Part shown: positions 3,840 to 15,298 of the stretch, piece after piece | How the letters are laid out: the number at the start of each line of letters is the position of its first letter | Numbering within the stretch: position 1 is the first letter of the stretch | Source of the DNA: Craspedostauros australis | Lineage: Eukaryota | NCBI GenBank assembly: GCA_030167865.1 | Contig: JALAGF010005880.1 | Coordinates: 1 to 64,000 of the forward strand | Reading direction: 5' to 3' | Length of the DNA: 64,000 nt | The notes under the pieces: model-generated | What the model saw: the letters and a program-made list of their open reading frames with translations, nothing else | Database searches by the model: none | Told to the model about the DNA's origin: nothing | Translations under genes and position numbers: made by a program

Positions 3840-5327
3840 ATGCCTTCCAACACCCCCGCCCATCGCCTCGCTCCATCATCCGCCATGTCCTTCGATGCAT
3901 CTGACACATGCGCAGGGCTGCCTGACAGTCTCGTCACCGCTGAGACCATCACGCGCCGCCTCGGATGGATTTGGTTGGCAACGCTGCTCGCAGACATGCA
4001 AGTCGAGTGCGACGATGAGTTCTTTGATCTGCTTGAACTCTCAGAGCACGAGTTCTATGCATGCATGTGCGCGTCGCCAGTGGTCACCATCATCCGCATG
4101 CGCAGTATGTGGAAGCTCCGCTCGTGGTATCAGGACTTTGGTCAGGGCGCTCATGGCGATTGGATTGATGCCATTGGCATGCTTGATGCACACTCCTTCC
4201 GTGCGTATCGCCGGGGCGAAGACATCATTCCCGCAGCATACATTGGCTCCGTCTTCCATGCACGTACGCCATTGGCATCAACATCATCTTGTCGCAACAT
4301 CGGCATCAACCATCCTGATGATGGCCATTCACTTGCTGTCCAACGTGCCCACAGCCGCTGTGTTTCGCATGACAACGCTTGCTTCCGTGGCAACCGCGTT
4401 GGAGACAACTGCACCATGGCTGCGCAACGCATCCACAGTGCTCACGATCGCAACGGTGTTGATGGCCACAACGCGCCTCCGCCTCTTGTTCCGAACGAGA
4501 ATTTTGCTGACACTGGTGTTCCGCCGAACCTTCGCAGCAAAGATCTCGACGATGCACGCTCGCCTCCCATTGGCTTGAGCACGGATCCCAGTGACGTTTT
4601 CGAGCCCATTGCAGAACACGGTTCTGACATCATTTTGTGTGGTCTCGCGGATCGTCTCAAGTCGGACGAATCCGGTCGTCAGCGTCATGGTGGGTACCAT
4701 GCCTACACCCCACCTGGACGACTTGATGGTTGCACATCCCAAGCATGGGATCTGTGCTTGGTGCGTCTCAAGGATGATCCGCCCACCACTGTACTCTATG
4801 GTAGTACCCACTTATGGGTCCCAGCGGATCCGGCCCTTGGAGCATNNNNNNNNNNNNNNNNNNNNNNNNNNNNNNNNNNNNNNNNNNNNNNNNNNACTGG
4901 TGTTCCGCCGAACCTTCGCAGCAAAGATCTCGACGATGCACGCTCGCCTCCCATTGGCTTGAGCACGGATCCCAGTGACGTTTTCGAGCCCATTGCAGAA
5001 CACGGTTCTGACATCATTTTGTGTGGTCTCGCGGATCGTCTCAAGTCGGACGAATCCGGTCGTCAGCGTCATGGTGGGTACCATNCCTACACCCCACCTG
5101 GACGACTTGATGGTTGCACATCCCAAGCATGGGATCTGTGCTTGGTGCGTCTCAAGGATGATCCGCCCACCACTGTACTCTATGGTAGTACCCACTTATG
5201 GGTCCCAGCGGATCCGGCCCTTGGAGCATTTTGTGATCATGCCGGTGTAACTCAACCCTATTCGGCCTTGCCTGATGGGTTGGATGGTTTCGCAAACATT
5301 GCTTGCCAACATGCAAGTCAAGCCTAA
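3840..5327 (+). mobile_element. Gag-like ORF of a probable non-autonomous plus-strand LTR element (element C); ~367 aa once the 384-nt gap duplication is removed
   Basis: The N-terminal helical segment (DDEFFDLLEL...MWKLRSWY...DWIDAIGMLDAHSFRAYRR) resembles diatom Copia Gag N-termini by eye. No pol motifs. Followed by a G-tract and TGTTG. Confidence 0.4.
4512..5229. repeat. Assembly overlap: 4512-4845 duplicated at 4896-5229 across a 50-N gap
   Basis: Essentially identical 334-bp copies directly flank the N-run. Confidence 0.9.
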
Positions 5328-5594
5328 CGAGATCCACCATCTGGACGTTTAGCACATCGGCATTTGCGCATTCGCCGTCAATTTTCAAGAACATACGAGC
5401 TCATCCTCGTTGTTGACTGGCTTCGAGCAAGGATATTCAAGCAACCTACTTCCACGCTTGAGATCTTCGAACGTGCACAATTCACGAGCCGATTGCATAC
5501 AACTTCCAGCACCCGTATGATGATATGGTCCCACCTATACTTGCGTGGGACATGTGGATTTCTTTCTTTGCCTTTGCGAAACTGGTATTTTTTC

Positions 5595-5796
5595 CGCTGA
5601 CGATCGTCAGCGTGGGGGGGGTGTTGGCATACCCGTGGGCCTGACGAAGGACAGACAGTCCGCAAGGCCCTCACACAGGAGGAGACACAGAGCCATCCGT
5701 CTCCTGTCCTCATAATTCCTCTCCGATCCTCATCCTACACACAGTATAACATCATAGCATCACACTATCACCCTCACGATACTGACACGATCAACA
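5595..5796 (+). repeat. Palindrome, polypurine tract and candidate 3' LTR (5622-5796) of element C
   Basis: Perfect 18-bp palindrome CGCTGACGATCGTCAGCG (5595-5612), G8 tract (5614-5621), then TGTTG...CAACA 5-bp terminal inverted repeats 175 bp apart. Confidence 0.55.
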
Positions 5797-5816
5797 GTTC
5801 ACAATTTGTGATGCCA

Positions 5817-8800
5817 TCACCACCCCATGAGCATGCGGCGCAGATGTTCAAACGCGTCCCGCGCGAGGCCTTTGGTGAAGATGTCGGCAATTTGGTGAGG
5901 TGTTGGCACATGAAGGATCCGGATGAAACCCTCCTTGACCCAGTGCCAGAAGAAGTGCCACTTGGTCAGAAAGTGTTTGGTTCGTGCTGTGATCTTGTGG
6001 TTTGTCGCCAGCGAGATGCACGCCTCGTTATCCTCAAACACGGTGCATTGGATGTTGGTTTGCAGTGGTTGGTTGAGGTTGGTTGATGCGTTCACCTCGT
6101 TGATGAGTTGTTGCGTCGGGATGAGGGCACGCATAGCAAGAGACAGTGCGGCGTACTCCGATTCCATAGTGGACAAAGCGATTTCCGTCTGTAGTTTTGA
6201 TTTCCACACGAGTGGGCAGCCGCCGAGGATGATGACATACCCCGTGCGAGAGCGCACCGCATTTGGGGAGTCGTCGGACTCGCGCTTGTATAGACCGGCG
6301 AAGTCGGCGTCGACATAGCATTCCATGTTGAGCTGGCCTGTTGGCCGTACGATGGTTCCCATAGTTTTGGTGTGGCGGAGATAACGCACTATCATTTTGA
6401 TGGCCTTTGCGTGTGGCTGGCGAGGATCGTTGCTGAATCGAGCCACCTGGGATACGGCGAAGGCCAGGTCGGGGCGCGTGTTCGTTGTCAAGTAGAGCAG
6501 CATGCCGACGATGGAGCAGTAGTTCCATGCTTCCTTCATTGGGACTTGGTCGGTCGATGCTCCAAGTGACAGTTGCGTTGTAGGCGTCACATTGGGTTTG
6601 CAGTCCTGCATGCCGGTGGCTTCGATGATCTTGTTGATGAGACCGGTCTGCTTGAGGTGGATGGTGTTTGCCTTGGGGTCCCTGTGCAGCGATATCCCCA
6701 GGAATTCTGTGAAGGTACCTTCTCGTGTGAGGTCAAATCCACGCTTGCGCATGGACTCAATGAATGTGTCCGCTTCTTCTTCCGTGCGCGAAGCAATGCC
6801 GGCATCGTCCACATAAAGGACGATCATCATCCCATCGCGCATGAATAGACACTTCTCTTGATCACACGCATGGAACCCTTCCGCGAGAAGAGCGCGCACA
6901 AGGTGTTGGTACCATAGCTTGGGAGCTATAGTTAACCCGTAGAGGCTCTTGATCAGCTTGAGGCATGTATCGGGTCCGTTGGTTGATCTGAATCCGCGTG
7001 GAAGGTGTAGGTACACAGGCCGATGGATGTCGGCTTGGACGAATGCATTCGAAAAATCAATCGATGTCGTGACCCAGCGAAGCAGAATGGAAAGGATGAG
7101 AAAAACTCGGACGGACGACCACGCGACGACTGGAGCGTAGGTAGCTTCCGTTTCGGTCATCATGTCGCCTCTGCAGCACCATCGGCCCTTGTACTTCTTG
7201 ACTGTGCCATCAGGCATTCGCTTGCGTCGGAATACCCACGTGCCTGGAAAGATGCGGTCGGTGGTGGAGGACTTTGGTACCTCAATCCATGTCCCTTTCT
7301 TAGTGAGGTCGTGGATTTCCTTGTGTGCGGCGGCCATCCATTTGCTCTTGTTGTCGTCGTTCATTGCCTTGTTGAAGGAAAGCGTGTCTGGGTCGGCTTT
7401 TGACGCCTTGTAGCTGAAGTATCGGTCTGTGATGCTGAGGTCACCGCCGCTGGTGAAAAAGCTGAGTAGGTCGTATGTGATGAGAGCGTTGTGCTCGCCG
7501 TCGTCGTTGTTGTCGCGGTCGAGGGTGGCTGCCATCGCATGATGCTCGGTGCGTTCAGAAGGCTCGAACTCACTTGGTGGAACCGGGATATCCGGTGGGA
7601 TTGCCGGAGCCACTCCGAGTTGGACGAGCAGGTGATGCAGTGCGACTTCGTAGCGTTCATTATGTGTGACGATGTTCCAAACGCAGCTGGCTCGGGTCAT
7701 GAAGTTGTACAGTCTTTCGCTGTCGTCAGGTGGCCGCACGTCGTTATTGACTGCTGTGATTGCTCGCTCGAGGGTGTATGGTACTCCCTCTGTCTGTGGA
7801 ATGAAACCGAAGTAGGAGACCGGTAGCTCGTATTCGTCAGCAAGGATGAGGTCGTCGAGGGTTTCGATGAGTTGGCGGATGGCGTAGTAGAGGCACTGCA
7901 TGCGAACGTCTCTCGATGGGAACCTGAAGTGCACAACATGATCGAAATAATGTTCCATGTATTGGACGACGCGTGGAAGTTGGGTCCACAAGGTTGCCAT
8001 CTCCGTGGGCCCCATTTCGGAATCGTCAGAAGAATTGTTGTCATCCGCGAGTGTGTCGGGCGGATTACTTGCCATTAGCACGTGGTGCTCGTTGGTTGGC
8101 GCTCCTCCGCTCGCCGCTGTGTCCTCTTGTTCCTTGCGCATTCTGGCTCGGATTTCGAGTTGTTGGATGCGAAGCATCCTTTCCATCTCGAGGTCACCCT
8201 GTGCCCAGCGTCGTTCTTCCCAAGTCAATTCTGTGGTTTCGATTGTCGCTAGATTTCGGAGCATGGAGTCAGCGTCGCGCACCAGAGCGTGGGCCTTCTG
8301 TGTTACTGTGTCATCCTGATGAGTGGTGTACTTCTTGAGTGTCGCAAGGCAGGTCTGGAGAGTGTTCTTCATGTCTGCCACGGCTTGGTCCTTGCTGGGT
8401 TCACTCATTGCGATGGTGGTTACGTTTGCGCTGGTTTCGGATGGTTGTTTGATGTCGTTGGCCCAGACCACTTTTCCACCCAACGTGTTGTAGGTGAGGC
8501 GCTCGACGGTCCGTCGCTCTCGTGTTGTGCGCTTGTTGATGCGTTCAGAGCGGCGTAGTGGAGGCGGTTTTGCCTTTCTAAACGTCGGTTGTTCTGTTGG
8601 TGCAGTGATGGGTTTGCGCAGCGGTGAAGTTGGAGGGGAGTCGATCGGTGGTTGCATGTCGTCGTCACTGTTGTCGTTGGCAACTCCCTCTGTCGGTGGC
8701 AACGGTTTAGGGAGACTTGTCGGAGTCTCTTCGGCTCCCTCTGTCGACGGCATTGGTGGCGTCGGCTTGTTGGTATCGGTGGTTGTTGGCGAACGACTGA

Positions 8801-11800
8801 TTTGTTGAGGTGGCTGCACTTGGTCAGTTGGGGTGATATCGTCCTTCGTGTGTGTTGTCACAGGTTGCCTCAAAATGTGAGTTGGTGAATTTTTTTCATT
8901 CACAACCGGAGTTCTTGTGTTTGGCGTTTCTGGCAACAATTTTGCTGGCGGATCGTCATCGTGTGAGGGAAGGAATCGCTGATGGTCGGCTTCATCCTCT
9001 CGCTCAATGTCCCGCTCTTCCATAGCAACGACATCGTCGTCATCGAACGGTATTTGATACGTAGTATCGCCAAACATGTGTGTCCATTCCGTTGAATTGT
9101 AGTCTGGGAGATCAGCCAGATCAGTCGCTATCGTCGCAAACCAATCGTCAAACACAACGTGAAATTGTGGTGTGATTGATCCCGTCCTCGGCGAGAGGAC
9201 CAGCGGAACCGTGGATGCGTGGCGAGCGGAGAGTCCCATGTTTACATAGCGTTCCCCACGTGGTTCCCATCTTGGTATCTTGCGGCTGTCGCCGAGCGCC
9301 TTGTTCAAGACGTAGACGGGGCTGCCCCACACATGTAGGTTGTGTAGCTGTTTCAGGGGCATGCGCGTGCGCGAGAGAATATCCAAAGGCGTGAGACCTG
9401 TTGCTGCGCTTGGTACGCGATTGTGTACGTAAGCGGCATGGACGACGGCCATGGGCCAGTGCTGGGCATCGAACATCGTAGGCCAATGAATGCTTTGATG
9501 CATCATCATTGTTCGTGCCATAGAGATGATCGTGCGGATGCTGCGCTCGGCCACTCCGTTGTGATGGTGNGCGCCGACTCCAGCAAAGCGGTGCACTTGA
9601 TGAAACCGTTTGAGGTGTTCGGCGTAGTCTGGCGATGTAAAGGTGGTGGCGTTGTCCGAGAGGTACGAACGCACGGGTACACCCACATCGCGGCACATGG
9701 ACTCGAAGCGTTCCTTCGCTTCCAATGTAGCGTGGNNNNNNNNNNNNNNNNNNNNNNNNNNNNNNNNNNNNNNNNNNNNNNNNNNGAACATCGTAGGCCA
9801 ATGAATGCTTTGATGCATCATCATTGTTCGTGCCATAGAGATGATCGTGCGGATGCTGCGCTCGGCCACCCCGTTGTGATGGTGAGCGCCGACTCCAGCG
9901 AAGCGGTGCACTTGATGAAACTGTTTGAGGTGTTCAGCGTAATCTGGCGATGTAAAGGTGGTGGCATTGTCCGAGAGGTACGAACGCACGGGTACACCCA
10001 CATCGCGGCACATGGACTCGAAGCGTTCCTTCGCTTCCAATGTAGCGTGGGTCGTGAGGGATGCGACTGGTTCCACGTGTATGTAGCCAGATGCGTGGTC
10101 CACAAACATTGCTCCACCCTTGTACATCTCCGACGCATCGGACTTGCCTCTTCCTGTGAAAAGGCGACCCAAGGTGCGCCCCACGAAGTGGTCCACGGAG
10201 ACTTGTTGGCCCGGGAAGAGGTGATCCGTCTTGATCACTCCCTGTCGGTCTTGGACGGCGTGCTGTGTTGTGCCTGGTGTAGTCCTGCAGTGCTGTTTGC
10301 CAAACTGGCACGCCGCACACAGCGGGCATTCTTGTACGCGGGCAGCGGCTGTCTGCATTTTCCTTGATGCCTCAGTGTTGACGAGGGCGCCGGATCGGAG
10401 TAGGAACTGCACTCGTCTGAAGGAGAGGTGCCCGAGTCGATAGTGCCACTTGAGCAGCTCCTTTTGCGGTTGAGTCAGGTTTTGGTTCTGCTCTGCCACG
10501 GAAGTAACAGTTGTGGTGAGCGCCCCTGGGAGTTCGGTGAGGTCGCTAGTGCGGTATGCACGTGAGGTCGGAAGGTTGTTCGATTTCTTGTTGTGGGCGA
10601 TGCTGGGACCTCGTTCGTCGTTTCCAGGGATGCCGCTCAGCTGGATGTTGTTCGCTTCCACGACAATATTCTCCCCTTTGTATTCATTGAGGAGGCATGC
10701 GGTGCTGATGAGCTTGACTGAGGACTCCGGCACATAGAAAGCCGGAAGGGATAAGGATCGAGGGTTGCCGTTGACGTCGAGGATGGACCATTCCACCCTG
10801 CCTTTCGTCTTTACCTTGGTGCGTCGAAGAAATCCGTTGAGGAAGGTTGGCGAGGTTGGTGCCGAGGTAGCACCTACGAAATCGTTGATATCGTTGGTCA
10901 CGCAAATGGAGGCGCCGGTGTCCCACACCACGTCGAAGGAGCCGTCTTGAGGGATGATTCCTTCCACCTTGTGGGGTGCGGCGAAAGCATGTTGGAAACC
11001 GAAGGTTGTGGCAAGGGTGTGATAGGCGTTGGTGAATATGCTGGTACCTGCGTGTTCGCTTGGGTCTGTGTGAGACGTACGCATGGAGCGAGTGGGAGTC
11101 CTTAAGTGATCGATGTCGCGATGATGTTTTGTGTACCGGTTTGGTGGATGAGCGGGATTCGTTTTGTTTCGCGCGCGACAGGAGTTTTGGTGTTTTCGGA
11201 ACCGGCGAGCACGGCGAACCTTGTTTTGGTGGTTCGCACATGGGGCGTGACGTGGGACGTGGTGTTTGGTGTTGGTGCGCTTGTGAAGGAGAAAATGTTT
11301 GAAGTCGTCGTTCCCGAACAGAGAGTCGTAGAGATCGTTCGAGGGCGTTGCCGGGTAGTGATAGAAGCGTGGTCTTGCTCTATTTGACTTGTTTTGCTTC
11401 TTCCTCCATGTGTTGACTTGGCGGATGGTTCCCATTGGAGTTGGCTGGTACTGGCGTGGGACATTGGTGTGAAGGGCGAATAGCACAACGGCTGTTGTCA
11501 TCCACATCATGATACTCATCACATGCCATCCGCACTCGATGCCGAGTAGAGCGACTTGTGCTGCACAAAGGAGGAGAAAGGTGCCGGTAACCATGTTGAT
11601 GGTTTTGAAGGCTGTGAACACGTTCCACACGGCGGTCCACCAGGAGCGTTCGTTTGCGTGGGCTTCAGCGGAGAGGCAGGTCCATGCTGCATGGTCGATT
11701 TCGAGCTGTGGACTGTTTGGTTTGTGCTTGAAATCGTCGATGTGGCCGGCAGTGCCGTGGGAGATGCGCCAGTGGCGGCACTTCGCGCACCAGTGGAAGG

Positions 11801-13328
11801 TCTTGTTGTTCATGAGCTTTTGTTGCGGCTCACCCTTCCGTGGAGGTGTTGTGATCCACGGGTCCTTCTTTTGTTGTGTTTTCTTGTTGACCTGTTTGCC
11901 CTTGGCGTTCATGAGTTTGCCTCCTTTGTTTTGTTCCAGAAGGCGAGCTTCCTTTGTAGTCGAGGAGTGGTTCGCATGCAAGCGCGGGGTGTTGCGGTCA
12001 CAGGAGTGCCTGTTGGCGTGCCAGGAGTTTCCCTGCAGCTCGTCGAGATAGGCATCCTCAGCTACGCTACAAATGTCCATCCAGGTGAGGTCCTCGCGGA
12101 GAAGGTGGGGCTCCGCTCGCTCGTAGGTCTTGAGGGACTTGTCTTCGATCAGTCGTCTGAGTCGATCGCTGATGTCGAGGATTCGATGACGGTATCGTTC
12201 TCCTGACGTGGTTCTGCCTCCTGCCATGAAGAAGTTGTCTGTCATGGTACGGAGAAGCAAGATCTCGAACTGGTCGGCGTCTTGAAGTTCCTTGCACATG
12301 ATGCGAAGGGTGTCAGCCATGGCTTGGATGTTCTCTCCCTGAAACTTCTGAGGTGTGGTCTTCCTGACCTTCTCTTGGAGCCGTGCGTACTTGTCCAGCG
12401 AGCTCGAGGTGATACTCTTGATGAGTTCGGTGAAAATCACGTTGAAGTCTTGTTGGTACTTCGGCTTGATGCGATTCATCAGGCGGTCTTCGAGGTCGGG
12501 GTCAAGGCTGTCGCGGAGGAATCGAGCGGCAGATGCGTTGTTCTGCTTGTCGTATCGATCCCACAAGTGGCGATAGAAGTCATGGTGGTCAGTGGCTTGG
12601 CTGATGGTGGTGCTGCCTGGGGCATCGAGGACACACACCATCTCGTCGGGGTGTTCGTTGCTCCTCATGTAGGTCATCGAGATGAGGCCTGCGGTGGACA
12701 TGTGATCCTTGAGGAGGCGCAGCATGCGCTGACGGTTGTCTCCGATCCGGAAGCGAGGGCGGATGCCTTTCTCTCGCTCCGGTTGGTTCTTGGAGTCCGA
12801 GCCGTTGTGGAGGACGCGCTGCTGTTGGGAGCTGTCGTAGGACGTGGCTGCGTCTTCTGCAAGGCCAGTCCACTCGACGTTCGGTTTCCCTCCCGTCCAG
12901 GGCACCCAGTGACGGCCAGCCTTGGTGAGGCCACCCATGATGGGTTTCTCTGGCTTGTCCTCGCTCTCGTACGCTACGTACGTGGTTTCGGGTCCGATGG
13001 GACCTTCGTCGGCGTCAAAAGGAAAGGCACCTCCAGTGGATCCAGTTTGGTTGCCTGCGTTCCCTTCGCGTCCTGCGGTTCCCTCGGTTTCACCAGGGTT
13101 CGGTGGGTTGTTGGTATCCCCGGTGTTGCCTTGGGCGAGGTCGCCTTCTTCTTGCCCGGCGGCCGTTTGATCCCCTTGCCGAGCTGGGATGGGGTTGGCT
13201 CCTCGCGAGATTCGTGATTCGTTGAGATCTCGAAGAGCTTGAGCGGCTTGCTGGTTGAGTCGCTCCACGAAGGCCTCCAGCCTGCGTTCTTCGCTGCTGA
13301 TGCTCGTGTCTTCTCCTTGGACGCTCAT
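5817..13328 (-). mobile_element. Ty1/copia (CoDi-like) retrotransposon with uninterrupted gag-pol polyprotein (element B); ~2398 aa after removing the 315-nt gap duplication
   Basis: Order is Gag (WCAKC...H...H knuckle), protease (VVWDTGAS), GAG-pre-integrase (LLKWHYRLGH...CAAC), integrase (VSVDHF, YLSDN, NGVAER), RT (YKGRWCCRGD, IDFSNAF, KSLYGL, LYVDD), RNase H (YVDADFAG, FEDNEAC, ADIFTKGL). Integrase before RT defines Copia. Confidence 0.97.
9471..10050. repeat. Assembly overlap: 9471-9735 duplicated at 9786-10050 across a 50-N gap
   Basis: 265-bp copies flank the N-run and differ at about 6 transitions. Confidence 0.9.
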
Positions 13329-14434
13329 GGTGAGGCGGTGGAGGTGTCGAAGTCGTTGGGCTTCGCTTGGTGTCGACGGTTGTCTCGGGCTTGGCTGCGC
13401 TTCCCCCTTCGATGGTGAAGGTGTGCATGGGGTGTTGGCAGGAGTGCTCTTGAGACGTACACCTGGTTTGCAGGTGTTGGTGGGTGCGCTTGCTTAGCAA
13501 GGGCTTGGTTTGATGATGTTAGAACGAAATCAAGGATGGGATTCCGCACCGAAACGTAGAGTGATCAGATCGTTGTTGGGGTGAGGATGAGTGTTTGTTN
13601 NNNNNNNNNNNNNNNNNNNNNNNNNNNNNNNNNNNNNNNNNNNNNNNNNNNNNNNNNNNNNNNNNNNNNNNNNNNNNNNNNNNNNNNNNNNNNNNNNNNN
13701 NNNNNNNNNNNNNNNNNNNNNNNNNNNNNNNNNNNNNNNNNNNNAATTAACACGGAGACAACACGGCAAATGTGCGTGTTACTGCGTGAAGATGAGGTGC
13801 AAAAGTCAATGAACAAAAACACCGCGATGGCCCGTGTTGTGAATTACGTCTTCTCACGATGTTGCTAGTAGTACGATCACACGATTGACCGTATTCACTT
13901 GAGAAGGTCAGGACAAGATTCGCACGTGTCACACCCAAGATCCAAGTCTGTCCTGATTGGGCAGATTGGTTCATCTTGGCAAGAAATCAATTTCCACGAC
14001 ATTTTTGGATCTGTGATTGAGGGAAAACGATTCTTGCGACGCGAAATGCGACACAAATCTGACACAACGGATTTTCGACCAAAATTTCCNTTCGGAACGG
14101 AAAAGGTAAGAAAAGTGGAGATTTCTGATTGGTCGACGGGTGTCGCTATTGTTAGAGATTTAGCGTGCGCTAATAGATGAGTTGCCTTCGGGCTAACTTC
14201 ATCGGTTGCTTATCAGGATCGTTTTTCCTGAGAGGCTTGGAGCCTTGGGGCTCGGTGTCGTTGGACACAGCGATCTGCGCGCTGAGGAAGTCTCTTTGAG
14301 AGTGAGGAAGGTGGATGTAAGCGAGAACCATTCGCAGCTACCAGTTAGTATTCCGTGTCTTCTGCACGTTGTCAGGAGGATGATCTGTCCTTCAACCGGT
14401 TTTGACGCCGTTTGATGTTGAGAACAAAGCTGTA

Positions 14435-15298
14435 TCAGACGATGATGTAACTGTAGTAGATTTGAAAGTAAGCTGTAAAGATTGTTTCTGATTGCTTGTT
14501 TTATGTGTTAAGCTTACTNTTGACAGGACGATCGAGTAAAAGGGCAGGGTTCATGCTGTCGTGCTTGAGCCGTTTGTGTTGTACATCAACATGTCGTGGT
14601 GGTTCGGCACATTCACAGCTGTTCAGCAGCTCCATCCGCAGAGCAGTACTTGATCCACAGGCATGGATATGCTTCAAGATGCCTGCAGGATTCGCAAGAT
14701 GGTGAGCTGAACAGGTGGCGTGGTTACAGGAGCTGGAGGGTGAGCAGGGCATGGATTGTGGTTCAACTACACACCATGCGCGCGGTAGCCTTTCATTGCA
14801 GTATCGGGTTCGGATACCGGGTACCGTGTACGCAACATGGANNNNNNNNNNNNNNNNNNNNNNNNNNNNNNNNNNNNNNNNNNNNNNNNNNTCAGACGAT
14901 GATGTAACTGTAGTAGATTTGAAAGTAAGCTGTAAAGATTGTTTCTGATTGCTTGTTTTATGTGTTAAGCTTACTATTGACAGGACGATCGAGTAAAAGG
15001 GCAGGGTTCATGCTGTCGTGCTTGAGCCGTTTGTGTTGTACATCAACATGTCGTGGTGGTTCGGCACATTCACAGCTGTTCAGCAGCTCCATCCGCAGAG
15101 CAGTACTTGATCCACAGGCATGGATATGCTTCAAGATGCCTGCAGGATTCGCAAGATGGTGAGCTGAACAGGTGGCGTGGTTACAGGAGCTGGAGGGTGA
15201 GCAGGGCATGGATTGTGGTTCAACTACACACCATGCGCGCGGTAGCCTTTCATTGCAGTATCGGGTTCGGATACCGGGTACCGTGTACGCAACATGGA
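14435..15298. repeat. Assembly overlap: 14435-14841 duplicated at 14892-15298 across a 50-N gap
   Basis: Essentially identical 407-bp copies flank the N-run. Confidence 0.9.

Follow-up and report, generated by a model that had tools for sequence, protein, structure and literature searches.

The polyprotein and its enzymatic domains

The 64,000-nt stretch of DNA analyzed here (the window) contains, on the minus strand, a polyprotein ORF of 2503 codons (5817..13328) that has no stop codons and follows the Ty1/Copia order gag-PR-IN-insert-RT-RNaseH. The Pfam matches to the polyprotein were, in that order, RVT_2 (1.4e-39, residues 2022-2251), gag_pre-integrs (1.3e-08) and weak rve and SH3_retrovirus. 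The motifs DTGAS (803), HYRLGH/CPLCAAC, VDHF, SDNATTF, NGVAER, YVDD (2172) and DADFAG (2340) are present. The element belongs to Ty1/Copia (Pseudoviridae), as given by its PR-IN-RT-RNaseH order, its Copia-type RT (RVT_2) and its catalytic motifs. Copia elements dominate the mobile DNA of diatoms (PMC2806351).

The RT-RNaseH (5820..7451, minus strand, residues 1960-2503) shares 48-58% identity with its best 120 matches, among which Fragilaria crotonensis, Mayamaea pseudoterrestris and Cylindrotheca closterium are named; in the junction alignment, conservation with these relatives starts at YKASKADPDTLSF (residue 1978). Judged by sequence similarity, in a comparison made without the reference CoDi clades A-D, the RT/RNaseH groups with diatom Copia elements (CoDi-like). 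The element forms a long branch in the tree with its relatives.

We did not find an LTR pair, that is, a direct repeat shared by both flanks of the ORF. The 5' LTR may be absent from the assembly, because, 270 bp upstream of the polyprotein start codon, there is a 145-N gap. A purine-rich tract follows the stop codon. Each 50-N gap of the assembly is flanked by duplications, as are other gaps, and about 105 aa of the ORF, in the integrase and away from the insert, are such a duplication flanking the N gap at 9736-9785. No second Copia copy was found in the window, and the insert is known from a single copy.

An in-frame addition at the IN/RT junction

The Copia plan is usually described as a fixed gag-PR-IN-RT-RNaseH arrangement with a disordered spacer after the integrase. 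In this element the integrase SH3-like domain is followed by an acidic and then Pro/Thr-rich linker (8556..9137, minus strand, residues 1398-1591), an ordinary disordered-type spacer that starts in the same way as those of the relatives (ATVxS..LPDFNSPEW..). The linker leads into a basic landmark motif, RRSERINKRTTRERRTVERLTYNTL (8481..8555, minus strand, residues 1592-1616), the counterpart of the relatives' P-RRS-T-R-x-R-xAP-x-RLGYDGxQGxGY, which normally stands directly before the RT. Linker and basic motif together (residues 1398-1616) consist of 16% Pro, 20% Ser+Thr and 19% WFYILVCM. The 'GKGY' motif of Copia integrases is part of the SH3-like domain; a reading of RLGYDG..GY as this motif was dropped, as GKGY was placed in that domain further upstream. 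By analogy with RSKKR-IHLIA*AVKAV of Ty1 (PMC6952103 Table 1), the basic motif may act as a nuclear localisation signal.

The stretch from the basic motif to the RT is occupied by the insert (7452..8480, minus strand, residues 1617-1959), which makes this interval about 320 aa longer than usual. The distance from the integrase end to the RT anchor is 562 aa, compared to a median of 226.5 aa (110-358) in all 120 relatives. Counted from where the basic motif ends, it is 348 aa; among the 120 closest relatives, the 91 with a match to the basic-motif regex have a median of 29 aa (6-157) there. The first-pass annotation, which had reported extra cargo between integrase and RT, after the Pro/Thr-rich integrase tail, was thus right on the excess and on the position, exactly at the IN/RT junction; its coordinates and sequences were also correct, with the heptad motifs on the minus strand inside the ORF 5817-13328 and MSEPSKDQ reading from 8408 (residue 1641). 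The insert is an in-frame, element-specific addition, about 320-350 aa long, to the IN/RT junction of an otherwise intact Ty1/Copia polyprotein.

The frame of the insert is continuous with both IN and RT, while the other frames stay open for only about 110-120 codons. The in-frame codon LLR was 0.279 for block A (computed on 1638-1746) and 0.176 for block B (computed on 1780-1927). Gag and the enzymes gave 0.19-0.32, the Pro/Thr linker gave -0.066, and the other frames gave negative values. The GC content at the three codon positions matches that of the rest of the ORF. The lineage's usual landmarks flank the insert in the right order, and there is no N within 1.2 kb of it, the nearest gap being that at 9736. 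The insert is coding-like, and is translated as part of Pol since the RT lies downstream in the same frame. No family matched the ORFs in other frames or on the opposite strand across the insert, and a search for a duplication from gag or elsewhere did not reveal a source for it (blastp E 0.55 or worse).

Two predicted helical blocks

Block A (8124..8408, minus strand, residues 1641-1735, 95 aa) is a charged amphipathic segment with 1% Pro and three predicted helices, placed at 1646-1668, 1673-1698 and 1703-1739 by the AF2 model of the whole insert with pLDDT of about 50-69. Modeled as a homodimer, it gave an ipSAE of 0.64 compared to 0.01 for the best of three controls, with a partner pLDDT of at least 73. 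The predicted interface is formed by the first two helices (residues 1643-1696) with contacts spaced 3-4 residues apart, and at least 80% of contacts are shared by the three runs. Among microbial proteins, 21 of 30 solved homodimers attained the mark used in this test and 0 of 23 single chains did; the eukaryotic counts were 17 of 29 and 0 of 30, respectively. The test was run without an alignment and its calibration set excludes predicted or orphan chains. The models point to block A as a self-associating helical module, coiled-coil or hairpin, in agreement with the earlier description of an amphipathic/coiled-coil segment of about 100 aa.

Block B (7614..7991, minus strand, residues 1780-1905) is hydrophobic and rich in aromatic residues (44% WFYILVCM, 13% aromatic), with five or six helices predicted as a bundle. 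The best of five AF2 models is all-helical with a pLDDT of 57.9 (range 38.6 to 57.9) and a pTM of 0.54. The helices were reproduced in two AF2 runs, one with block B alone and one with the whole insert, the latter at a pLDDT of 40.3. The earlier description of an aromatic-rich segment of about 170 aa holds for the composition and fails for the size: LWTQ to VQLG spans 126 aa, and heptads 1 and 2 (see below) lie about 174 aa apart. Neither block is of low complexity, as had been claimed; their composition is that of a folded protein, compared to 16% Pro and 19% WFYILVCM in the upstream linker.

We searched for relatives of block B with the pLDDT 57.9 model. The best E value was 0.9 with Foldseek against the PDB and 0.5 against BFVD, and a wide VIA-align search found generic helical bundles (best Z 6.2) and no specific fold match. 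Mob1/phocein proteins were among the matches, with Foldseek rows at E 0.9-2.9 and TM 0.36-0.48 and with VIA-align scores of Z 6.0 for MOB4 (rmsd 3.6, 96 aligned) and Z 5.8 for MOB1 (rmsd 3.8, 114 aligned). These scores tie with those of GPCRs and designed bundles (Z 6.2), and Pfam Mob1_phocein did not match the insert at E up to 10.

Sequence searches with the insert were equally negative. A word-indexed search among polyprotein-length proteins left 0 of 946 candidates that match it, and exhaustive phmmer against 1.84 billion representatives returned none at E up to 0.001. Pfam gave no family for residues 1398-1637 and 1638-1958 at E up to 10, NCBIfam gave a sub-threshold row only, and PDB sequences gave no match at E up to 10. 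The ESM Atlas yielded no usable match for block B or block A, the JGI metagenome contigs yielded 56 pattern matches of which none was confirmed, and no match to the insert was found in IMG/VR contigs. We regard the insert as an orphan, because no homologue was recovered in sequence, family or fold searches. The first-pass annotation had named disorder of the blocks, or a match to a standard CoDi domain, as findings that would speak against its proposal of accessory proteins. Both blocks are instead predicted to be helical, in models of low confidence, and there is no Pfam family at E up to 10.

Repeated heptads as candidate protease sites

Three heptads with the consensus E-H-[H/N]-hydrophobic x3-[A/T] are all the EH[H/N] occurrences in the 2503 aa. 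Heptad 1, EHHVLMA (8070..8090, minus strand, residues 1747-1753), lies in the acidic linker that joins block A to block B, in a coil segment of the model. Heptad 2, EHHAMAA (7527..7547, minus strand, residues 1928-1934), follows block B and a Pro-rich stretch, and heptad 3, EHNALIT (7476..7496, minus strand, residues 1945-1951), is 15 aa before the conserved RT region. The proposal that EH[H/N] motifs delimit the blocks is borne out by their location in linkers, in coil segments of the model. In shuffled inserts, three or more EH[HN] occurred in 1 of 20,000 and at least one EH[HN][AV][LM] in 39 of 20,000, for a pattern that was chosen after seeing it. We found no DNA-level repeat between the heptad sites. 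The codons differ among the three copies and the flanks are dissimilar, suggesting that the seven residues have been kept by something besides recent duplication.

Scanning the polyprotein for heptad-like sequences gave scores of 24.7-27.7 for the three heptads. LHHLLVQ (7620..7640, minus strand, residues 1897-1903) scored 14.0 and is probably structural, as it falls inside the last helix of block B (1891-1903). The top match outside the insert was AYHTLAT (11007..11027, minus strand, residues 768-774; score 12.3), located where the gag/PR junction is expected, 35 aa upstream of DTGAS. QHAFAAP at 779 was rejected as a gag/PR site, as it aligns with the relatives' RMALQAP, which is without His. 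The scan gave no candidate at the PR/IN junction. Among the 120 relatives, 23 have H..[LM]A at a distance of 35 to 50 residues upstream of the protease D[ST]G, and 4 have it in the IN/RT window. An H-hydrophobic motif occurs in the last 40 spacer residues of 17 of the 120, compared to 7.9% of random windows, and is not a lineage-wide mark of the junction.

The Ty1 protease sites are TARAH*NVSTS (Gag/PR), VPTIN*NVHTS (PR/IN) and RSKKRIHLIA*AVKAV (IN/RT), with His at P1 in TARAH*NVSTS or at P4 in IHLIA*AVKAV (Gazda et al. 2020, PMC6952103 Table 1). The Ty1 IN/RT site had earlier been given as IH/LIA; the actual site is IHLIA*AVKAV (PMC6952103 Table 1). Similar to the Ty1 sites, the heptads combine His with following small or hydrophobic residues, a basic patch upstream at IN/RT and a position at the IN/RT boundary. 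Ty1 has one site per junction; here, three copies of the motif fall within 200 aa and would enclose an additional polypeptide, and the likeness amounts to a few residues. Given this resemblance, and that to the motif upstream of PR, cleavage at the heptads is plausible, and heptad 3 is the best candidate for the IN/RT junction site. Its positional counterpart in the P0052 clade is a conserved xHAFLVA, 12 residues upstream of the RT anchor.

Extra modules at the same junction in relatives

Several relatives also carry extras between the basic motif and the RT start: a helical module (P0052, P0055, P0066 and P0078), another module (P0034) and two CCHC knuckles (P0097). They belong to separate clades and are shorter: the five in which the basic motif was found have tails of 139-157 aa. 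No sequence relation between these extras and the insert was detected (hhalign probability 0.3%; blastp E 0.89 for P0034). In P0066 and P0078, H[VA]NLA precedes the module and HAFLVA follows it, so that the module is bracketed by H-x-x-L-x-A motifs, and H[VA]NLA is almost identical to the HVNMA in their own gag/PR zone. The extras of the relatives thus resemble the insert in their place and, for P0066/P0078, in being bracketed by motifs. Between P0052 and P0055, identity is 67% in the extra module, 94-97% in the enzymes and 57% in the linker; extras of this kind thus change nearly as quickly as the linker does. The unrelated extras in other clades, together with the published CoDi-A chromodomain, suggest that the IN/RT site accepts modules.

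Interpretation of the insert

The best explanation of these results, to which we assign a probability of roughly 40%, is that the insert is functional, that the heptads are protease sites and that products are released. The heptad motif would be the recognition site of the element's own protease at the IN/RT junction, present three times. Processing would generate four products: the integrase with its basic tail and block A, a free block B polypeptide of about 180 aa, a 17-aa peptide and the RT-RNaseH. Block A would most likely be an integrase oligomerisation or tethering appendage, in the region where the targeting determinants of Ty1/Copia elements reside, and our best guess for block B is a protein-binding module inside the particle or the pre-integration complex. 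A broader and doubtful extension is that the IN/RT junction of diatom-type Copia is a cargo slot, in which polypeptides between duplicated protease sites are released in the particle as accessory proteins. The element would then carry the largest known load, an integrase-attached dimerising block plus a free orphan protein of about 20 kDa.

The insert might instead be an uncleaved C-terminal tail of the integrase, acting as a tethering or targeting domain, with the cut made at the site nearest the RT or at an unseen one and with the heptads serving as docking motifs for host factors (chromatin). The insert follows the conserved basic motif of the integrase, the dimer model of block A fits a multimeric integrase and short motifs repeated in linkers also fit avidity docking. 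Precedents are the integrase C-terminal regions of Ty1/Copia elements that decide integration targets (PMC11735389) and the CoDi-A integrase chromodomain at the same position (PMC2774666). We nevertheless consider such a tail unlikely, as heptad 3 sits exactly at the expected IN/RT cut with heptads 1 and 2 as near-copies of it, a similar motif (AYHTLAT) occurs in the gag/PR zone, and neither a known docking motif nor a chromatin-reader domain was detected with Pfam or NCBIfam. It is also rather improbable, in our judgment, that a fast-evolving spacer has simply accepted an insertion without a function of its own, which persists only through keeping the frame open, the heptads being relics of junction duplication. 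The failure of every homologue search, the spread of spacer lengths in the relatives (110 to 358 aa) with unrelated extras in separate clades, the near-linker divergence of the P0052/P0055 module (67% identity vs 57% in the linker and 94-97% in the enzymes) and the low pLDDT of the structure models (40.3 for the insert, 57.9 for block B) are what such a passenger would lead one to expect, and production of the RT demands an open frame anyway. However, about 340 open codons would be rare in a random insert, with the other frames reaching about 110-120, and the in-frame codon bias found here equals that of the enzymes, unlike that of the linker. In addition, the three heptads are kept despite differing flanks and codons, block B is very hydrophobic and aromatic with reproducible helices, and block A passed the dimer test against controls.

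The insert would be an artefact if the assembly were chimeric here, and would go untranslated if it were an intron spliced from the mRNA. The duplications around the 50-N and other gaps and the failure to find LTRs lend some weight to this, but we consider it very improbable: the insert is more than 1.2 kb from any N (nearest gap 9736), it resembles the rest of the ORF in codon-position GC and in in-frame codon bias, and the frame runs unbroken into IN and RT between the usual landmarks in their usual order.

The case rests on one copy and on low-confidence models and is a lead, not a result. If the end of the spacer does take up folded modules, LTR elements could gain accessory functions without a new ORF, and the point would carry more weight should copies of the protease site flank these modules. 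It would offer a handle on integration targeting and on the interaction with host silencing in diatoms, and a true cargo slot would amount to a retrovirus-like route to accessory proteins.

Comparison with known systems

Our literature search found no report of an extra released Pol domain for Copia/Pseudoviridae. Some retroviral Pol polyproteins include an extra cleavage product, such as dUTPase. These extras, too, are additional domains inside the polyprotein that the protease releases; they are recognisable enzymes with homologues, whereas the insert is an orphan without an enzymatic signature.

The Ty1 and Ty5 integrases have targeting domains. In the Copia elements Tal1 and EVD, integrase C-terminal regions (the IN2 region) set targeting (PMC11735389). 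The insert is like these regions in occupying a variable part of Pol downstream of the integrase core, a site of element-specific protein-interaction determinants. Such regions are short and mostly disordered with few residues that act, unlike the two blocks of about 100-130 aa with folded-protein composition seen here.

A close parallel is CoDi-A, a diatom Ty1/Copia with a putative chromodomain at the integrase C-terminus (Llorens et al. 2009, PMC2774666). Neither Pfam at E up to 10 on residues 1398-1637 and 1638-1958 nor the models, which are all-helical, gave a CoDi-A chromodomain in the present element. Both are diatom-type Copia elements that acquired a further module between integrase and RT, at the integrase's C-terminal end; the insert differs in being far larger, predicted all-helical, without a homologue and split by a repeated heptad. 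A diatom-type Copia with an extra module at the IN/RT junction is already known in CoDi-A; the insert described here is real and differs from it in form.

An insert between integrase and reverse transcriptase

The Ty1/Copia (diatom CoDi-like) polyprotein is encoded on the minus strand by one open reading frame of 2503 codons (5817-13328), a single frame that contains the insert and no internal stop codon. The Pfam domains keep the Copia order: gag_pre-integrs lies at residues 941-1012 of the polyprotein, RVT_2 at residues 2022-2251 (E 1.4e-39), and weak matches to rve and SH3_retrovirus fall between them. The catalytic motifs are complete, comprising DTGAS (803), the integrase HHCC and D,D,E, YVDD (2172) and DADFAG (2340).

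We compared the element with the 120 best relatives of its RT-RNaseH part (48-58% identity); the named ones belong to the diatom genera Fragilaria, Mayamaea and Cylindrotheca, and the remainder are metagenomic. From the end of integrase to the RT anchor the query measures 562 aa, against a median of 226.5 aa (range 110-358) in all 120 relatives. Near the end of this spacer the relatives have a common basic landmark, P-RRS-T-R-x-R-xAP-x-RLGYDGxQGxGY, followed by the RT start [FY]KA..DPDTLSF. The query copy, RRSERINK...RLTYNTL, is at residues 1592-1616 (8481-8555, minus strand), and its RT starts at 1978. The landmark, for which we found no name in the cited literature, probably serves both as the nuclear localisation signal of integrase and as a junction element. 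Between the end of this motif and the RT anchor the query has 348 aa and the relatives a median of 29 aa (range 6-157, in the 91 of 120 with a regular-expression match); the tail is at most 74 aa in 86 of these 91 and 139-157 aa in five. From this difference we conclude that roughly 320 aa have been inserted where IN meets RT, which bears out the first-pass annotation, which had proposed about 300 aa of extra cargo there and whose quoted peptides were all confirmed at their coordinates. The insert (residues 1617-1959; 7452..8480, minus strand) is real and coding-like, lies between the basic tail of integrase and RT, and is made up of two blocks rich in helices plus three repeated heptads.

Composition, coding and predicted structure of the two blocks

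Block A (1641-1735; 8124..8408) is charged, with 18% Asp+Glu, 16% Lys+Arg and 1% Pro. Block B (1780-1905; 7614..7991) is 44% WFYILVCM, compared with 30-37% in the enzymes of the element, and 13% aromatic. In the linker upstream of the insert (1398-1616), Pro makes up 16% of the residues, Ser+Thr 20%, and hydrophobic or aromatic residues 19%. Using a codon model trained on PR, IN, RT and RNaseH, we obtained in-frame log-likelihood ratios of 0.279 for block A and 0.176 for block B, compared to 0.19-0.26 for gag, which was kept out of training, and -0.066 for the Pro/Thr linker; the two remaining frames were clearly negative throughout.

AlphaFold2, run without an alignment, gave low-confidence models (pLDDT 40.3 for the whole insert; for block B alone, pLDDT 57.9 and pTM 0.54). 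The two runs agree, at this low confidence, on the helices, of which block A has three and block B five; the run on block B alone adds a short sixth helix at the block start. Block A scored 0.64 in a homodimer test, against 0.01 for the best control, the test being calibrated on solved structures and not on orphan predicted chains such as this one. Over 1643-1696 the predicted contacts are spaced 3-4 residues apart, with at least 80% agreement among three runs and a partner pLDDT of at least 73. The homodimer mark was reached by 21/30 solved homodimers and 0/23 single chains from microbes, and by 17/29 and 0/30, respectively, from eukaryotes.

Fold searches with the block B model (pLDDT 57.9) yielded nothing but generic helical bundles. 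The best Foldseek E value against PDB was 0.9, with several Mob1 entries at TM 0.36-0.48, and VIA-align gave a best Z of 6.2, with Mob entries (Z 5.8-6.0) level with GPCRs and designed bundles.

Three repeated heptads

The heptads EHHVLMA (1747-1753), EHHAMAA (1928-1934) and EHNALIT (1945-1951) hold the only three EH[HN] occurrences in the polyprotein. When the insert was shuffled 20,000 times, three or more such motifs appeared once, for a pattern chosen after it had been seen. Since the codons differ among the three sites and the flanks are dissimilar, a recent DNA duplication does not account for the heptads, and the seven residues are being kept by something. In the low-confidence AlphaFold2 model they fall between helical blocks. 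The third lies 15 aa before the RT anchor, and at its position a clade of eight relatives has a conserved [H/N/D/P]-[A/V/P]-F-L-[V/M]-A.

We scored every 7-mer of the polyprotein against the heptads. The best other match was LHHLLVQ, in the last helix of block B; beyond the insert AYHTLAT scored highest, at residue 768 and 35 aa before DTGAS. In this zone upstream of the protease, 23/120 relatives have H..[LM]A, mostly HVNMA. P0066 and P0078 have RHVNLAA and RHANLAS, near-identical to their own HVNMA, before their extra module, and HAFLVA after it. Against a general rule, an H-hydrophobic motif is present in the last 40 spacer residues of only 17/120 relatives, compared to 7.9% of random windows; H..[LM]A is found in the IN/RT window of only 4/120; and the scan of the polyprotein gave no heptad-like 7-mer at the PR/IN junction. 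A further point against it is QHAFAAP at 779, considered as a gag/PR site and rejected, since aligned relatives have RMALQAP, without the His.

The junction in relatives and searches for homologues

The relatives with long tails have different content at the same site, after the basic motif and ahead of the RT start: a helical module in P0052, P0055, P0066 and P0078, a different helical stretch in P0034, and two canonical CCHC zinc knuckles in P0097. These extras are unrelated to the query insert (hhalign probability 0.3%; P0034 blastp E 0.89), and the P0052-clade module is unrelated to the P0034 stretch (hhalign probability 0.1%). The extras are spread over separate clades of the RT tree and, judged from sequence, are independent.

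We recovered no homologue of the insert from a word-indexed protein collection or by phmmer among 1.84 billion representatives, and no match in Pfam, NCBIfam, PDB sequences, the ESM Atlas, or metagenome and viral contigs. The insert is not a recognizable copy of another part of the element, and the other frames and strand across it gave no family. The query RT forms a long branch in the RT tree, with at most 58% identity to any of the 120 best relatives. True sister inserts would be hard to detect in a spacer that changes so fast.

Gag region, assembly and genomic setting

The gag region of about 780 aa (residues 1-802; 10923-13328, minus strand) had no Pfam match. The protease of the relatives is likewise at about residue 750-850, in polyproteins of about 2000 aa; typical Copia elements are far shorter. 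Between gag and protease we observed a transmembrane-like hydrophobic segment (residues ~560-640; 11538-11594, minus strand), with a peak 19-residue Kyte-Doolittle window of 2.04 at residue 579. Among the relatives whose protease is preceded by more than 500 aa, 97/100 have such a window of at least 1.6; in the top-scoring relatives listed, about 240-380 aa separate the segment from the protease active site downstream of it. On these hydropathy profiles a membrane segment, of which we know no description in Copia Gag-Pol, looks lineage-wide.

Near-perfect duplicates of 265-300 bp flank each 50-N gap (4512-5195, 9471-10050 and 14435-15191) and are an assembly or gap-closing artefact. Around the gap at 9736-9785 an 88-aa repeat and 17 X inflate integrase by about 105 artefactual residues. 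An adjoining ORF of 495 aa (3840-5327, plus strand), without a Pfam family, includes another of these duplications, which doubles part of it. The flanks of the element (5200-5816 and 13329-14800) have no direct repeat in common that would mark an LTR pair; a gap of 145 N (13600-13744) is found 270 bp before the start codon, and assembly may have lost the 5' LTR. A purine-rich tract lies about 85 bp past the stop codon (~5693-5733). The 64-kb window contains no second Copia copy. The element has genes for neighbours and does not belong to a repeat island; the region 15774-62316 is rich in host genes whose ORFs are long and uninterrupted, encoding an ataxin-2-like protein (LsmAD), LETM1, a PARP with WWE and WGR, a Na/H exchanger, a class V aminotransferase, a protein kinase and Bmt2.

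Possible function and comparison with known elements

We propose that the heptads are candidate processing sites of the element's own protease, that block A would remain on integrase as an appendage that associates with itself, and that a polypeptide of about 180 aa with block B would be freed. We give this joint reading a probability of roughly 40%. An uncleaved integrase tail carrying docking motifs would agree with Copia targeting as described in PMC11735389, and we regard it as unlikely. To the same degree we think it unlikely that the insert is a tolerated passenger. A point in favour of a passenger is that in the pair P0052/P0055 the module is 67% identical, the linker 57% and the enzymes 94-97%; such extra modules evolve nearly as fast as the linker. 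An artefact or intron is very improbable, being opposed by the codon bias and the continuous frame.

The observation of the insert is solid and comes from one copy. The protease-site reading of the heptads is attractive but provisional, coming from that same copy, from low-confidence models and from an insert for which the searches recovered no homologue. A search of open-access PMC/bioRxiv full text turned up no Copia element reported to have, between IN and RT, an orphan insert exceeding 300 aa or repeated motifs of the junction.

The nearest published case is that of the CoDi-A elements, for which Llorens et al. (2009, PMC2774666) report a putative chromodomain at the integrase C-terminus; module gain there therefore has precedent. 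Unlike CoDi-A, the query has no chromodomain detectable by Pfam. The Ty1 sites in Table 1 of PMC6952103 are TARAH/NVSTS, VPTIN/NVHTS and RSKKRIHLIA/AVKAV, and the last of these has a basic patch followed by H-hydrophobic-A, as does the query insert.
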